34,752 nt of DNA from Nemertoderma westbladi. Lineage: Eukaryota > Animalia > Xenacoelomorpha. This document shows, piece by piece, positions 26,223 through 34,453 of the stretch. Each line of letters starts with the position of its first letter. The stretch's first letter is position 1. The translations under genes and the position numbers were made by a program. The stretch covers positions 1-34,752 of the forward strand of contig JAUCBJ010005200.1 in the NCBI GenBank assembly GCA_032718475.1, written 5' to 3'. The notes below the pieces were generated by a model. The model searched no databases, was not told where the DNA came from, and saw nothing but the letters and a program-made list of their open reading frames with translations.

Positions 26223-27372
26223 ATCTCGATTGCTTCAAAGCTATAACAGAATTTGAATCCCATCAGGGATCCTGTTGAGAGACTGTTACGTGGGAACCAA
26301 AATGGTTTCCGTAAATGTCGTGGGAGCTTGGAGCCCATTTTGGTACTTAGTTGAAGAGTTATCAAAAAAGAAAGACAGGCATCTAGCTGTTATCTTTGTT
26401 GACTTCTTCAAGGCCTTTGATTCAGTCTCTCGCTCACGTATGTTCAGCATACTTTCATTATATGGGATTCCTGATGAAATTATAGCAGCAATCAGATCAG
26501 TATACGATGGTTCGACAACATTTGTGACTACTGTTGATGGTAACACAGATCAATTCGACGTCTTATGGGGATTCCTCCAGGGTGACACATTTGCACCGTT
26601 CTTATTCGTAATTGTGGTTGGTTGTGTTCTACGCATGTCCTACCTTAGACCATCTTAATAGAGAAGGGGAGGGGTGATGGTAACACACCCTACTGGCACA
26701 AGAAGTAGAGGAAATACAGCAAAGGACCATACTGCTCTAGACTTTGCTGATGACGTAGGGGTACTGTCCGAATTACTAGAGGGACCCCAAAGGATCCTCT
26801 GCTCATTGGATCAGGTTTATTCTAGTGTTGGTCCTTTTGTACACTCCAAGAAGACTAGAATTATGACAAGGAAAGTTTACAGCCCTCAAGAAATGTCTGA
26901 TCTTCAGGGCATAGTCTGTCCATGGTATGGTCATGGCATGGTATTGTCTGTCCACAAGTTGGAAGTCCCGTAGAATATAACGGAACCTACTTGTATCAAT
27001 AACGATGAACACATCTCCAATCACACTATACAACCTTGGAGGTGTTTCACTGTAGTCTTAACTTGCTTGACACTTGAACGGAACCGCCTCCGCTTTGCAG
27101 GACATTGCTTTCGCCGTGAGGACCAGCCAGTGAATAATCTTGTGCTTTGGCAAGCTCATGGATTGAATTTGAATGGGGACAGCCCATGACTTTCTTTAGA
27201 CGCATCTTAAAGGACACCGGCCTTAAAGATGCGGATGATCTAGCAAATGTAATGGGTGATAGGGAGTTGTGGCGGCGCAATTTTGTCGACAAGCCGGGGC
27301 AGCATTCTCAATATATATGTAATATATATACTGCAGCTGCAATGCAGCATGCCGATAGAATAGCAGTAGTAG
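26223..27372 (+). mobile_element. 5'-truncated, degraded non-LTR retrotransposon (LINE, RTE-like), copy 1: RT fragment, C-terminus and TAG-rich tail
   Basis: RT motifs FVDFFKAFDSV and GFLQGDTFAPFLF (ORF 26275-26658) and LDFADDVG (FADD at 26743-26754); C-terminal RLRFAGHCFRR-coding DNA at ~27084-27116; frameshifts and stops; decayed tail TAGAATAGCAGTAGTAG at 27356-27372; colinear with the minus-strand copy. Only a weak TSD candidate (GTTTTAA 26217-26223 / 27376-27382). Clade assigned from motif recall only. Confidence 0.88.
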
Positions 27373-27868: not shown

Positions 27869-27880
27869 ATGTTAAACAAT
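27869..27880. other. Left target-site duplication of the 411-bp-unit insertion (ATGTTAAACAAT)
   Basis: Identical 12-mer at 27869-27880 and 30245-30256, abutting both ends of element-derived sequence. Confidence 0.85.
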
Positions 27881-27928
27881 TATTATAGGAAGGGATCTAG
27901 GGGTCTTAACCTCGAATGATAAGTTTAT
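27880..27928 (-). repeat. 49-bp inverted fragment of the 411-bp unit at the 5' end of the insertion
   Basis: TTATTATAGGAAGGGATCTAGGGGTCTTAACCTCGAATGATAAGTTTAT is the exact reverse complement of 28082-28130. Confidence 0.95.
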
Positions 27929-27945
27929 CGAAACGCGTACGTGGT
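27928..27945 (+). ncRNA. 3' half of a hammerhead ribozyme (truncated first copy)
   Basis: TCGAAACGCGTACGTGGT is present, but the CTGATGA and stem I 5' arm are replaced by the inverted segment. Confidence 0.8.
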
Positions 27946-28250
27946 TTGGAGGGATATGAGATATTAATTTCAAGAAAAATTACGCGATTCCTAAATTTGT
28001 ACACTACCCGGTTAAAAAGTACGCATTTGATGGGATTAGTCCTACAATTGCGCCAATAAAAGATAAGTTATTTTCGGTAAAATAAACTTATCATTCGAGG
28101 TTAAGACCCCTAGATCCCTTCCTATAATAAATGTATAATAACAAACACCTCGAAGAATACAGCTTGCCAACACATTGTTACTACCAATAATCAAAAATCA
28201 GGGGCTAATAAAATGGCAGCTGGCTTTGAAATTAATACGCCATATCTCAA

Positions 28251-28313
28251 GAACCTGTGGCCTAGTGGTTGTAGTCTCGGCTTCCACCTCGAGGTCCCCG
28301 GTTCGAATCCGAC
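28251..28313 (+). promoter_or_regulatory. tRNA-derived head with internal RNA Pol III promoter, copy 1
   Basis: A box TGGCCTAGTGG at 28258-28268 and B box GGTTCGAATCC at 28300-28310 with tRNA-like spacing; anticodon-like arm CTCGG-CTTCCAC-CTCGAG; no 3' acceptor strand. Confidence 0.88.
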
Positions 28314-28356
28314 ACCACGCTGATGAGACCCAGTAAGGTCGAAACGCGTACGTGGT
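28314..28356 (+). ncRNA. Minimal type I hammerhead ribozyme, copy 1 (predicted cleavage after A28350, GUA triplet)
   Basis: Stem I ACCACG/CGTGGT; core CTGATGA 28320-28326; stem II GACC-cagtaa-GGTC; GAAA 28341-28344; stem III reduced to palindrome ACGCGT 28344-28349; cleavage base A28350. Confidence 0.93.
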
Positions 28357-28661
28357 TTGGAGGGATATGAGATATTAATTTCAAGAAAAATTACGCGATT
28401 CCTAAATTTGTACACTACCCGGTTAAAAAGTACGCATTTGATGGGATTAGTCCTACAATTGCGCCAATAAAAGATAAGTTATTTTCGGTAAAATAAACTT
28501 ATCATTCGAGGTTAAGACCCCTAGATCCCTTCCTATAATAAATGTATAATAACAAACACCTCGAAAAATACAGCTTGCCAACACATTGTTACTACCAATA
28601 ATCAAAAATCAGGGGCTAATAAAATGGCAGCTGGCTTTGAAATTAATACGCCATATCTCAA

Positions 28662-28724
28662 GAACCTGTGGCCTAGTGGTTGTAGTCTCGGCTTCCACCT
28701 CGAGGTCCCCGGTTCGAATCCGAC
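28662..28724 (+). promoter_or_regulatory. tRNA-derived Pol III head, copy 2
   Basis: Identical to 28251-28313, shifted by 411. Confidence 0.88.
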
Positions 28725-28767
28725 ACCACGCTGATGAGACCCAGTAAGGTCGAAACGCGTACGTGGT
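28725..28767 (+). ncRNA. Minimal type I hammerhead ribozyme, copy 2 (cleavage after 28761)
   Basis: ACCACG CTGATGA GACC CAGTAA GGTC GAAA CGCG TA CGTGGT. Confidence 0.93.
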
Positions 28768-29072
28768 TTGGAGGGATATGAGATATTAATTTCAAGAAAA
28801 ATTACGCGATTCCTAAATTTGTACACTACCCGGTTAAAAAGTACGCATTTGATGGGATTAGTCCTACAATTGCGCCAATAAAAGATAAGTTATTTTCGGT
28901 AAAATAAACTTATCATTCGAGGTTAAGACCCCTAGATCCCTTCCTATAATAAATGTATAATAACAAACACCTCGAAAAATACAGCTTGCCAACACATTGT
29001 TACTACCAATAATCAAAAATCAGGGGCTAATAAAATGGCAGCTGGCTTTGAAATTAATACGCCATATCTCAA

Positions 29073-29135
29073 GAACCTGTGGCCTAGTGGTTGTAGTCTC
29101 GGCTTCCACCTCGAGGTCCCCGGTTCGAATCCGAC
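29073..29135 (+). promoter_or_regulatory. tRNA-derived Pol III head, copy 3
   Basis: Identical A and B boxes, shifted by 822. Confidence 0.88.
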
Positions 29136-29178
29136 ACCACGCTGATGAGACCCAGTAAGGTCGAAACGCGTACGTGGT
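29136..29178 (+). ncRNA. Minimal type I hammerhead ribozyme, copy 3 (cleavage after 29172)
   Basis: Same sequence as copy 1. Confidence 0.93.
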
Positions 29179-29483
29179 TTGGAGGGATATGAGATATTAA
29201 TTTCAAGAAAAATTACGCGATTCCTAAATTTGTACACTACCCGGTTAAAAAGTACGCATTTGATGGGATTAGTCCTACAATTGCGCCAATAAAAGATAAG
29301 TTATTTTCGGTAAAATAAACTTATCATTCGAGGTTAAGACCCCTAGATCCCTTCCTATAATAAATGTATAATAACAAACACCTCGAAAAATACAGCTTGC
29401 CAACACATTGTTACTACCAATAATCAAAAATCAGGGGCTAATAAAATGGCAGCTGGCTTTGAAATTAATACGCCATATCTCAA

Positions 29484-29546
29484 GAACCTGTGGCCTTGTG
29501 GTTGTAGTCTCGGCTTCCACCTCGAGGTCCCCGGTTCGAATCCGAC
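29484..29546 (+). promoter_or_regulatory. tRNA-derived Pol III head, copy 4, with an A-box point mutation
   Basis: A box reads TGGCCTTGTGG (A>T at 29497); B box intact. Confidence 0.8.
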
Positions 29547-29589
29547 ACCACGCTGATGAGACCCAGTAAGGTCGAAACGCGTACGTGGT
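29547..29589 (+). ncRNA. Minimal type I hammerhead ribozyme, copy 4 (cleavage after 29583)
   Basis: Same sequence as copy 1. Confidence 0.93.
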
Positions 29590-29894
29590 TTGGAGGGATA
29601 TGAGATATTAATTTCAAGAAAAATTACGCGATTCCTAAATTTGTACACTACCCGGTTAAAAAGTACGCATTTGATGGGATTAGTCCTACAATTGCGCCAA
29701 TAAAAGATAAGTTATTTTCGGTAAAATAAACTTATCATTCGAGGTTAAGACCCCTAGATCCCTTCCTATAATAAATGTATAATAACAAACACCTCGAAAA
29801 ATACAGCTTGCCAACACATTGTTACTACCAATAATCAAAAATCAGGGGCTAATAAAATGGCAGCTGGCTTTGAAATTAATACGCCATATCTCAA

Positions 29895-29957
29895 GAACCT
29901 GTGGCCTAGTGGTTGTAGTCTCGGCTTCCACCTCGAGGTCCCCGGTTCGAATCCGAC
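29895..29957 (+). promoter_or_regulatory. tRNA-derived Pol III head, copy 5
   Basis: Identical A and B boxes, shifted by 1644. Confidence 0.88.
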
Positions 29958-30000
29958 ACCACGCTGATGAGACCCAGTAAGGTCGAAACGCGTACGTGGT
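29958..30000 (+). ncRNA. Minimal type I hammerhead ribozyme, copy 5 (cleavage after 29994)
   Basis: Same sequence as copy 1. Confidence 0.93.
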
Positions 30001-30244
30001 TTGGAGGGATATGAGATATTAATTTCAAGAAAAATTACGCGATTCCTAAATTTGTACACTACCCGGTTAAAAAGTACGCATTTGATGGGATTAGTCCTAC
30101 AATTGCGCCAATAAAAGATAAGTTATTTTCGGTAAAATAAACTTATCATTCGAGGTTAAGACCCCTAGATCCCTTCCTATAATAAATGTATAATAACAAA
30201 CACCTCGAAAAATACAGCTTGCCAACACATTGTTACTACCAATA

Positions 30245-30256
30245 ATGTTAAACAAT
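30245..30256. other. Right target-site duplication of the 411-bp-unit insertion (ATGTTAAACAAT)
   Basis: The unit sequence (...CCAATAAT, normally followed by CAAAAATC) stops at 30246 and runs into the 12-mer also found at 27869-27880, with a 2-nt overlap. Confidence 0.85.
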
Positions 30257-31031: not shown

Positions 31032-32751
31032 CTACTACTACTAGGATCGGCATGCTGCATTGCCGCTGCATTTTTAAGAATGCTGTGCCGGCTTGTCGAC
31101 AAAATTGCGCCGCCACAACTCCCTATCACCCATGACATTTGCTAGATCATCCGCATCTTCAAGGCCTTTAAGATGCGTCCCAAGAAAGTCATGGGCTGTC
31201 TACCATGCTTATTCACTCCATGAGGCTGCCAAAGTACAAGATTATGTACTGGCTGGTCCTCACGGCGAAAGCAATGTCCTGCAAAGCGGAGGCGATTTTG
31301 TTCTAGTGTCAAGCTTGGGGGAACCAATGAGACACCTCCAATGTTATATAGTGCCTGGATGGAGATGTGTGCATTGTACTTGACACAATGAACCCGGCGT
31401 AGCATTCTTGTGAATGTGCCATCCAGAGATTTGGTGTCCTCAGCAGTTAGAGCCCAGCATGGACTCCCATAGAGGAGTACTGGAACTACTGCTGCTCTAA
31501 ATAATCGGACCTTAAGTTTCCGAATAATTCTCGGTGACTTCCAAATCCTGGAAAGCCTATTCAAGGTTGCCCATGCCTTTCCCTTACGTATTCGAAGGTC
31601 CTCACCTGACTTCCGGATCCATGATCCCAGGTAACAGAAGTCGTCCACATGCTCAAGCATACCATCCTTTTAGCTTATGCTCATCCGATCAGAGACTTGC
31701 TGAGGACTTTCAAAGTTAACTGTCAAAATTTTGGTCTTTCTGGCGTTAATAAAAAGACCAACACTAGAAGCAGCATGTTCTAATTAACTGAGGAGCCGTT
31801 GGGTTTCCTCTAGTGATTCTGAGAGTACTCCTAAGTCTTCAGCAAAGTCTAGTTCAGTTAGGTACTTGGCAGGATTTCCTCGACTTCTGGAGCCAGTAGG
31901 TGGAGGACAATTATGAACAAGAATGGTGCAAGTGTGTCTCCATGGAGGACGCCCCATAACACTTCAAATGGTTCTGTGTCACCATCAACAGTAGACACAA
32001 ATGTTGTCGAACCATCGTATACTGATCTGATTGCTGCAATAATTTCATCAGGAATCCCATATAATGAAAGTATGCTGAACATACGTGAGCGGGAGACTGA
32101 ATCAAAGGCCTTGAAGAAGTCAACAAAGATAACAGCCAGATGCATGTCTTTCTTTTTTGATAACTCTTCAATTATCCTTCTAAGTGCCAAAATGGGCTCC
32201 ATGGTCCCACGACCTTTACGGAACCCATTCTGATTTCCACGGAGCAGTCTCTCAATGGGATCCCTGATGCGATTTAATATAATTCTATTGTATAGCTTTG
32301 CAGCAATCGAGATCAATGAGATTCCCCGAAAAGAACCATAGAGTGTTAGGTTGCCCTTCTTGGGAACTGGCACCAACTTATTTGTTTTAATTTCTTGTGG
32401 GACTCTTGTTGTTCGGTACATGTCTACTATGATAGGATTGAGCGATGAGATATGATGGGCTTTAAACACTCAGGTATTTTAAAGACCTCAGGGGGAACAC
32501 CATCTTCTCCACTGGCACGATTGGTCTTAATGCTCTTTGCAGCAACCTTCACTTCTGCAAAGGAGATATCGCCAATGGGAATATCTGGGAGTACAGACTC
32601 AGACACTTTTACTTCTATAAAGTTATCAGCAATACCCTGTCATTATTGAGGAGCTTTTCAAAGTGGGCCTTCCAACCATTGAGGCGATCGGCTGGTGATT
32701 CAGCCTTAACCTTGGTGGTTGGTTGGCTTTTCCGCCCAGTAAGAATATATA
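31032..32751 (-). mobile_element. 5'-truncated non-LTR retrotransposon (LINE, RTE-like), copy 2, with (TAG)4 tail and 10-bp TSD
   Basis: Tail (CTA)4 on + at 31032-31043; TACTATAGAA duplicated at 31022-31031 and 32752-32761; RT-coding fragments in between. Confidence 0.92.
31142..32745 (-). pseudogene. Fragmented ORF2 reverse transcriptase of LINE copy 2
   Basis: LVPVPKKGNL-FRGISLISIAAKLY-NQNGFRKGRGT-FVDFFKAFDSV-GVLHGDTLAPFLF (ORF 31858-32469); catalytic motif degraded to DFAED (31835-31849); VDDFCYLGSW, LLYGSPCWAL and RLRFAGHCFRR (ORF 31142-31660); several frameshifts and a deletion near 31903; no endonuclease domain retained. Confidence 0.9.
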
Positions 32752-33313: not shown

Positions 33314-34453
33314 TGTTCGTGTTTCAGTGGATCCTTCGTGTCGCCTCCGGGTTCGTGTTTCAGTGGATCCTTCGTGTCGCCTCCGGTGTTCGTGTTTCAG
33401 TGGATCCTTCGTGTCGCCTCCGGTGTTCGTGTTTCAGTGGATCCTTCGGTCGCCTCCGGTTCGTGTTTCAGTGGATCCCTTGGGTCGCCTCCGGTGTTCG
33501 TGTTTCAGTGGATCCCTTGGGTCGCCTCCGGTGTTCGTGTTTCAGTGGATCCCTTCGGGTCGCCTCCGGTGTTCGTATTTCAGTGGATCCCTTGGGTCGC
33601 CTCTGGTGTTCGTGTTTCAGTGGATCCCTCGGTTCGCCTCCGGTGTTCGTGTTTCAGTGGATCCTTCGGGTCGCCTCCGGTGTTCGTGTTTCAGTGGATC
33701 CCTTGGGTCGCCTCCGGTGTTCGTGTTTCAGTGGATCCTTCGGGTCGCCTCTGGTGTTCGTGTTTCAGTGGATCCCTTCGGGTCGCCTCCGGTGTTCGTG
33801 TTTCAGTGGATCCCTTGGGTCGCCTCCGGTGTTCGTGTTTCAGTGGATCCTTCGGGTCGCCTCCTGGTGTTCGTGTTTCAGTGGATCCTTCGGGTCGCCT
33901 CCGGTGTTCGTGTTTCAGTGGATCCCTTGGGTCGCCTCCGGTGTTCGTGTTTCAGTGGATCCTTCGGGTCGCCTCCGGTGTTCGTGTTTCAGTGGATCCC
34001 TTGGGTCGCCTCCGGTGTTCGTGTTTCAGTGGATCCCTTCGGGTCGCCTCCGGTGTTCGTGTTTCAGTGGATCCTTCGGGTCGCCTCCGGTGTTCGTGTT
34101 TCAGTGGATCCCTTCGGGTCGCCTCCGGTGTTCGTGTTTCAGTGGATCCTTCGGGTCGCCTCTGGTGTTCGTGTTTCAGTGGATCCCTTGGGTCGCCTCC
34201 GGTGTTCGTGTTTCAGTGGATCCCTTGGGTCGCCTCCGGTGTTCGTGTTTCAGTGGATCCTTCGGGTCGCCTCCTGGTGTTCGTGTTTCAGTGGATCCCT
34301 TCGGGTCGCCTCCGGTGTTCGTGTTTCAGTGGATCCTTCGGGTCGCCTCCGGTGTTCGTGTTTCAGTGGATCCCTTCGGGTCGCCTCCGGTGTTCGTGTT
34401 TCAGTGGATCCCTTGGGTCGCCTCCGGTGTTCGTGTTTCAGTGGATCCTTCGT
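33314..34453. repeat. 37-bp GC-rich minisatellite, ~31 copies: GTTCGTGTTTCAGTGGATCC(TTCG/CTTG/CTTCG)GGTCGCCTCCGGT
   Basis: Period 37 (e.g. 33388 to 33425) with 35-38 bp variants; one GGATCC per unit; sharp borders with AT-rich flanks. Confidence 0.97.

Follow-up and report, generated by a model that had tools for sequence, protein, structure and literature searches.

Tandem array and hammerhead motif

The window, by which the whole analysed stretch of 34,752 nucleotides is meant, contains a tandem array of 5.6 copies of a 411-nt non-coding unit with a GC content of 40.1% (Table 1). Five hammerhead copies follow one another in a row in this array, and the spacing of 411 nt from unit to unit is found five times. 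The units are almost identical, as only two differences occur in all 5.6 of them, at positions 28155 and 29497, and neither lies inside the ribozyme. A 95-aa stop-to-stop frame on the minus strand of the unit matched no Pfam family at E <= 1. The array ends at unit position ...CCAATAAT. The start of the array was also considered as a possible ribozyme cut site, but this was rejected, since the start lies 12 nt upstream of the cut.

Table 1. Position, strand and basis of the features described in the text
Feature	Position	Strand	Basis or remark
Non-LTR reverse transcriptase remnant, stop-ridden	26257-27300	+	RVT_1
Left copy of 12-bp direct repeat ATGTTAAACAAT, candidate target-site duplication	27869-27880		Abuts inverted fragment
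Inverted unit fragment at 5' end of array	27881-27928	-	Reverse complement of 28082-28129
Tandem array of 411-nt non-coding unit, 5.6 copies	27928-30246	+	TRF: period 411, 99% matches
ACGCGT in truncated first unit	27933-27938	+	Sequence
tRNA-derived module, in every unit	28258-28310	+	A box and B box
Pol III-type A box TGGCCTAGTGG	28258-28268	+	Pattern match, exact
Pol III-type B box GGTTCGAATCC	28300-28310	+	Pattern match, exact
Hammerhead copy 1, type I, complete	28314-28356	+	Predicted cut between 28350 and 28351
Helix III palindrome ACGCGT, copies 1-5	28344-28349, 28755-28760, 29166-29171, 29577-29582, 29988-29993	+	
TTTT, sole run of at least four T in unit	28482-28485	+	About 130 nt after cut site
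Hammerhead copy 2	28725-28767	+	Predicted cut between 28761 and 28762
Hammerhead copy 3	29136-29178	+	Predicted cut between 29172 and 29173
Hammerhead copy 4	29547-29589	+	Predicted cut between 29583 and 29584
Hammerhead copy 5	29958-30000	+	Predicted cut between 29994 and 29995
Right copy of 12-bp direct repeat ATGTTAAACAAT	30245-30256		First two letters are the last two of the array
Non-LTR reverse transcriptase remnant, stop-ridden	31078-32640	-	RVT_1

The class against which the motif was tested is the type I hammerhead ribozyme (Rfam clan CL00010). Read directly from the window, positions 28341-28350 are GAA-ACGCGT-A, that is, G12, A13 and A14, followed by a palindrome and by A17, and the ACGCGT at 28344-28349 is its own reverse complement. 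An earlier, sequence-only reading had described GAA, palindrome and A at this place; this is confirmed, and the letters lie inside a complete hammerhead that is identical in five copies. The first copy has the layout ACCACG / CUGAUGA / GACC-CAGUAA-GGUC / GAA / ACGCGU / A / CGUGGU, with the predicted cut directly before CGUGGU. Helix I comprises 6 bp (ACCACG/CGUGGU) and can be extended beyond a C bulge by UCCGA/UUGGA, to 11 bp. Helix II has 4 bp (GACC/GGUC) and a 6-nt loop, CAGUAA. Within one copy, helix III amounts to an A-U and a C-G pair around a 2-nt loop and nothing more. The core, consisting of C3 U4 G5 A6 N7 G8 A9, G12 A13 A14, the pair A15.1-U16.1 and H17 (here an A), is complete in all five units.

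Counting both strands, the word CTGATGA occurs eight times in the window. Five of these occurrences (28320, 28731, 29142, 29553 and 29964) belong to the whole motif and have identical flanks, while the remaining three are located in the reverse transcriptase remnants and have no hammerhead context. The whole motif is far beyond chance. Rfam in E-value mode recognised Hammerhead_HH9 in each of the five units over the full model length (26.2 bits, E = 0.0012); in gathering mode the whole window gave no match, the score of 26.2 bits standing against a gathering score of 52 for Hammerhead_HH9. This shortfall arises where the alignment has a gap of five columns in helix III and where loop 1 is shortened. 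Palindromy taken alone is weak evidence, and by our own arithmetic a 4-nt insert is self-complementary by chance in 1 of 16 cases when A15.1 and U16.1 are fixed by the core. Since all five ribozyme copies are identical, they provide no covariation. The usual loop-loop contacts are uncertain, because in the fold a single bulged C is all that is left of loop 1 of helix I.

Two further features of the motif were observed. A second 6-nt palindrome, CGTACG, is present at 28347-28352 and in every unit, where it overlaps ACGCGT and spans the cut site. It could offer a competing, unproductive pairing between copies, although the cofold minimum still pairs ACGCGU with ACGCGU. In the truncated first unit (27928-27945), GAA-ACGCGT-A-CGTGGT is kept, whereas CUGAUGA and helix II are missing. 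This remainder could take part in a double hammerhead solely as a substrate strand for the first full copy.

Minimal hammerheads of Penelope-like elements were reportedly treated by Lunse (2017), and the double hammerhead of ASBVd is said to have been treated by Forster (1988). Most metazoan hammerheads are described as type I motifs with a helix I of 6 bp, a helix II of 4 bp and a helix III of 1-2 bp, the last being capped by a palindromic loop of 2-4 nt, an arrangement that impedes cleavage of the monomer and lets a tandem pair form the active dimer (PMC4209133). The rationale given for this arrangement is that multimers are cleaved and monomer circles are spared (Cervera & de la Pena 2014, PMC4209133). 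A double-hammerhead model for a short helix III is likewise presented in PMC6765202, PMC6466107 and section 15 of PMC7229834, and reviews apply it to Penelope-like elements and ASBVd as well (PMC6765202, PMC6466107, PMC7761336). Judged by its letters, the motif in the window has the architecture published as the 'canonical metazoan type I hammerhead' (PMC4209133), which is shared by non-LTR retrozymes, newt satellite 2 and Penelope-like elements. Thus, the sequence-only reading assigned the motif to a class of dimer-cleaving hammerheads whose published description it matches (PMC4209133), and the two-strand folding minimum, described below, is indeed a double hammerhead.

The closest likeness is with the non-LTR retrozymes of axolotl and newt (HHR_Amex1 and satellite 2). 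These are also tandem non-coding units of a few hundred nucleotides with low GC, each with one type I hammerhead, that form very abundant families (PMC7229834). Their helix III, one pair with a palindromic tetraloop, is equivalent to two pairs with a 2-nt loop. A model in which efficient cleavage depends on dimers is accepted for them (PMC7229834). Further retrozyme traits found here are the single type I hammerhead per unit, a GC content under 45-50% and the lack of an ORF, although the unit of 411 nt is slightly above the 170-400 nt quoted for metazoan retrozymes (PMC7229834). Similarly, Penelope-like minimal hammerheads, which are found in pseudo-LTRs, share the short palindromic helix III, the tandem layout and the dimer model; however, their minimal motifs have a helix II of 7-8 bp and a helix I of 4-5 bp, and often no helix III, as against 4 and 6 bp for helices II and I here (PMC4209133). 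A Penelope-like ORF is absent from the array, and the neighbouring reverse transcriptase remnants match RVT_1 only. ASBVd resembles the present element in its helix III of 2-3 pairs, its active double hammerheads in multimers and its spared monomer circles (PMC6765202, PMC6466107, PMC4209133). In contrast to the type I genomic DNA repeat described here, it is a plant RNA replicon of type III topology with no DNA copy. The trait common to the dimer class of satellite 2, ASBVd and Penelope-like elements, a palindromic loop above a helix III of 0-2 pairs, is found in ACGCGU.

Insertion structure and genomic surroundings

The surroundings of the array are of eukaryotic, animal type. A satellite with a 21-nt unit (25 kb, 69-25086, TRF) occupies 72% of the window, with higher-order periods of about 104 nt, and variant blocks of 16 nt recur within it. 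Another tandem repeat, with a 37-nt unit, lies at 33314-34452 (TRF; about 31 copies with 93% matches); it has higher orders of 75 and 112 nt and is open in three plus-strand frames, which is expected of a repeat. A literal text search of the literature found no match to the ribozyme letters or to the 21-nt satellite unit. The two reverse transcriptase remnants derive from the same reverse transcriptase and are mutually inverted (RVT_1, E = 3.3e-18 and 2.1e-06). They bracket a stretch of about 3.7 kb in which the hammerhead array is contained, and their 3' ends (about 27283-27360 and about 31040-31110) are mutually reverse-complementary.

The array is flanked by a direct repeat, ATGTTAAACAAT, which is the longest word common to both 61-nt flanks; a common word of 12 nt was reached in 7 of 5000 flank shuffles. 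The inverted fragment at the 5' end of the array reaches 27872 when two mismatches are allowed, so that arms of 57 nt and 96% complementarity are obtained (27872-27928 and 28082-28138). The fragment, with a length of 48-57 nt, thereby forms a fold-back with the first unit. Penelope-like elements are described as inserting in partial tandem, and an inverted, 5'-truncated copy frequently adjoins them at the 5' end (PMC8557442). A layout of this type, with head-to-tail copies and an adjacent inverted 5' piece 48-57 nt long, is present in the window. With its flanking direct repeat and near-identical units, the array looks like a single insertion of a multimer. Further, its letters deviate from the majority in the genome at 28027, 28184, 28239, 28299 and 28363, in part also at 28192. 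These deviating letters are common to all units, and thus the array derives from one variant template.

Simple twin priming of the LINE type was considered as the origin of the inverted stub and rejected. The stub corresponds to unit positions 28082-28129/38 and the direct part begins from 28339, about 200 nt apart when counted around the unit. By our own reasoning, this geometry would fit twin priming only with a deletion or a second template.

For the anatomy of the family as a whole, the analysis used only contigs from public runs. Two DNA runs of organism A had 3662 and 1426 contigs that aligned to the unit. The summed word depth over the unit was 4-8e5, whereas the left flank, which is single-copy, reached 17 and 12. 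Such depth is not to be equated with copy number, but it does show that this family is extremely abundant in the source organism. Contigs with an unrelated continuation end repeatedly at two places: behind 28191 (at least 14 contigs in run X1 and at least 14-16 in run X3) and behind 28129-28138 (at least 20-21 in X1 and at least 3-12 in X3, depending on the register used for the unit). These recurrent ends are the same as the two outer ends of the insertion in the window, of which the left one is inverted. They constitute a lead and no census. The 53-60 nt between about 28131-28138 and 28191 could correspond to what has been described as the 'tail' in insertions of Penelope-like elements.

Folding and interpretation of the palindromic helix III

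Folding was carried out for two separate strands, for a longer transcript with two ribozymes and for the circular unit, with energies that ignore Mg and tertiary contacts. For two strands of 43, 68 or 96 nt, the minimum-energy fold is the classical double hammerhead in all three cases. In this trans structure helix II is formed within each strand, helix I is formed between the strands and a single 6-bp helix III arises from ACGCGU paired with ACGCGU. The double hammerhead lies 8.3 kcal/mol below two monomers. When the palindrome is barred from pairing, the dimer energy rises from -44.3 to -38.2 kcal/mol, a cost of 6.1 kcal/mol. The ensemble free energy of dimerisation is -6.4 kcal/mol, and the modelled Kd in trans is about 3e-5 M. 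At such a Kd, free monomers would seldom meet, and thus pairing in cis within a multimer would be favoured.

In the monomer, the minimum-energy fold has no helix III. Hairpin loops of less than 3 nt are disallowed by the nearest-neighbour model, and closing CGCG by a lone A-U pair comes at a cost of +5.2 kcal/mol. The earlier claim that two pairs closing a 2-nt loop cannot fold in a monomer therefore holds within this model. In the folds, helix III is seen only between two copies or as this single costly pair. In a two-ribozyme transcript of 581 nt, the enforced double hammerhead ties with the free minimum at -151.0 kcal/mol; the six helix III pairs have an ensemble probability of 0.10-0.11, compared with 0.84 for the local helix I. 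The circular 411-nt monomer folds at -97.1 kcal/mol (z = -2.9 against 100 shuffles) with helices I and II formed, helix I continuing into a long stem and helix III absent. In the model, the sole barrier to self-cutting of the circle is this missing helix III. Folding thus supports the feasibility of the dimer, which is accessible in energetic terms.

Together with the motif and its class, these folds argue that the 411-nt retrozyme-type repeat probably carries a canonical metazoan type I hammerhead with ACGCGT as its helix III, and that cutting would take place mainly as a double hammerhead. We infer the following course for such an element. Neighbouring copies in a multimeric transcript would pair their ACGCGU strands into a 6-bp helix III, with the strands of helix I swapped between them. 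Each copy would then cut after GUA, between 28350 and 28351 in the first copy and at the equivalent positions in the others, and 411-nt monomers with 5'-OH and cyclic-phosphate ends would be released. A host ligase of the RtcB type would likely close these monomers into circles. As the circle would have only a single hammerhead, in which helix III is unable to form, it would be largely spared. Finally, the circle or a multimer would likely be reverse-transcribed and inserted by a Penelope-like (or LINE) enzyme, giving rise to arrays.

Alternatively, the monomer may cut adequately by itself, with the long helix I and loop contacts holding the core, the A15.1-U16.1 pair sufficing for helix III and the palindrome being incidental. 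The chance of 1 in 16 for a palindromic insert leaves room for such a coincidence, and helix I is indeed long and stable, as its 11 bp and one bulge run on into a stem of the unit of about 35 bp. In addition, the hammerheads of invertebrate retrozymes are described as mostly efficient monomers (PMC7761336), and the axolotl motif, which has one pair and a palindromic tetraloop, still cleaves 6% in 1 h as a monomer, its dimeric constructs cleaving far more (PMC7229834 section 15). However, the monomer-active invertebrate motifs have two pairs with a tetraloop, and not one pair (PMC7229834 section 15), and in the present motif the lone A-U pair would have to close CGCG at the cost given above. 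A short palindromic helix III is, moreover, a recurrent trait in descriptions of the dimer class (PMC6765202, PMC6466107, PMC4209133). On this evidence, adequate cutting by the monomer is unlikely, and a motif that cuts mainly as a double hammerhead remains the preferred reading.

The same evidence bears on two statements of the sequence-only reading. Its prediction that the ribozyme would work only as a dimer stands in so far as the dimer is feasible and the architecture is that of the dimer class; the word 'only' goes too far, given the 6% per hour of the axolotl monomer and the share of about 10% that the dimer has in the cis ensemble. Its proposal that the palindrome would explain the tandem layout does not hold. 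Coral and mussel retrozymes have monomer-active hammerheads and are tandem too (PMC7761336), and the palindrome does not account for the layout because any element needs two cut sites for the release of a unit. Overall, that reading applied the accepted model for a known class, which is plausible here and was somewhat overstated. Both the dimer model and a palindromic helix III were already established for animal hammerheads, and in this respect the locus adds an example and no principle. It is nevertheless a clean specimen: all five ribozymes are identical and intact, the ends of the array are sharp, a direct repeat flanks it and an inverted stub lies at its 5' end.

A second alternative concerns whether the array is processed as RNA at all. 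The units could be a silent satellite of young DNA copies whose processing as RNA has ceased or never took place, with the intact ribozyme resulting from recent amplification and not from selection. In the two DNA runs of organism A, no substitution reaches 1% within 28314-28356. The copies of the genome vary little anywhere, however. In run X1 a substitution of at least 1% is present at 16 of the 411 unit positions, so that 1.7 would be expected in the 43 nt of the ribozyme against the 0 observed, and the excess of conservation over the rest of the unit is not significant. Further, one diverged copy in run X5 is changed within the core, at 28322 (G>T) and 28342 (A>C). These observations, like the near-identity of the units in the array, would be expected of silent copies. 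Against this, by far most members of a very abundant family have all 13 core letters, the three helices and the cut-site triplet intact, and every studied family of such architecture is transcribed and processed according to PMC7229834. A silent satellite is therefore considered quite improbable.

tRNA-derived module and possible promoter

Each unit has a tRNA-derived module directly before the ribozyme. The segments 28258-28268 and 28300-28310 are, by their consensus sequences, pol III-type A and B boxes. The pattern AGTGG-N25-50-GGTTCGANNCC has four matches in the window compared with 0.00 expected (100 shuffles), and the remaining unit fails the pattern because 29497 A>T mutates the A box of the fourth unit. 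Only at a threshold of 80% does ARAGORN report a pseudo-tRNA (28255-28321), whose anticodon loop has 8 nt. An intact tRNA gene was rejected, since neither ARAGORN at default settings nor Rfam found a tRNA in the unit, and what is left is a relic. The 3' (acceptor) side of this relic is helix I of the ribozyme, and the boxes lie 40-90 nt before the cut site. The single TTTT of the unit is, by its letters, a possible pol III stop, in which case multimers would need read-through. If the internal boxes drive transcription, TTTT would halt pol III before the second ribozyme.

This module sets the element apart from the retrozymes, which section 9 of a review says seem to lack promoters (PMC7761336). 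In contrast, it is shared with the SINE-like Sm-alpha and Sj-alpha elements of schistosomes (Ferbeyre 1998; Laha 2000; via PMC6765202, PMC8490949), in which a type I hammerhead comes immediately after a pol III-type promoter. Section 11 of PMC6765202 describes the Sm-alpha elements as transcribed by pol III and cleaved in cis or in trans. In both cases, the promoter would be left at the 3' end of the released unit after cleavage, and the elements are tandem, non-coding and abundant (PMC6765202). Sm-alpha is about 335 nt long as against 411 nt here, and the comparison is one of published descriptions (PMC6765202, PMC8490949).

It is very improbable that the unit is a trans-acting element in the style of Sm-alpha, transcribed singly from the A and B boxes to TTTT as an RNA of about 245 nt with one ribozyme, the transcripts pairing through the palindrome and cutting each other with no 411-nt circles formed: although both boxes are exact, the TTTT is suitably placed and the schistosome elements set a precedent (PMC6765202 section 11), the modelled trans Kd of about 30 uM is high for a cellular RNA, the tRNA-like part is recognised by ARAGORN only at its 80% threshold and by Rfam not at all, and a contig from a run guessed to be RNA closes as a 411-nt cycle and reads across the unit boundary, where tandem DNA would look alike. 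This contig, from run X4 of organism B, is 441 nt long (411 + 30), closes on itself and carries the majority letters of the organism A family. A circle, a tandem repeat or carry-over could each have produced it. As it fits a circle and a tandem repeat equally, nothing is drawn from it here.

A more far-reaching reading is proposed tentatively, as less likely than not. The element may be a retrozyme with its own promoter, in which a tRNA-derived A/B-box module is fused to a dimer-obligate hammerhead and the relic acceptor side has become helix I. It would then be a SINE/retrozyme hybrid of the Sm-alpha type, possibly outside schistosomes. A Penelope-type enzyme, priming at two fixed points of the unit (about 28131-28138 and 28191), may have copied a single RNA circle into a ready multimer that was inserted as the array. 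The ends that the array shares with other copies of the family bear on how, and by which enzyme, non-LTR retrozymes insert, and the tRNA-type boxes before the ribozyme bear on what transcribes retrozymes. The main interest of the locus lies in its promoter-like tRNA relic and its clean insertion ends.

A scan for relatives with the pattern GGTTCGA..CTGATGAG..CGAAA, which was too loose, returned at least 120 metagenome loci and nine viral loci. Among the matches listed, none of the 129 was related to the unit, and blastn gave just one match of 27 nt (L022). In three of the viral and metagenome loci, L123 (501-549, minus strand), L053 (501-550, minus strand) and L046 (397-453, plus strand), a tRNA-like T-loop word precedes a hammerhead-like motif by no more than 20 nt. 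These motifs are seemingly genuine hammerheads with a GNRA-capped helix II. A layout of tRNA followed by hammerhead is also seen in non-animal DNA, in sequence that is unrelated to the 411-nt element.
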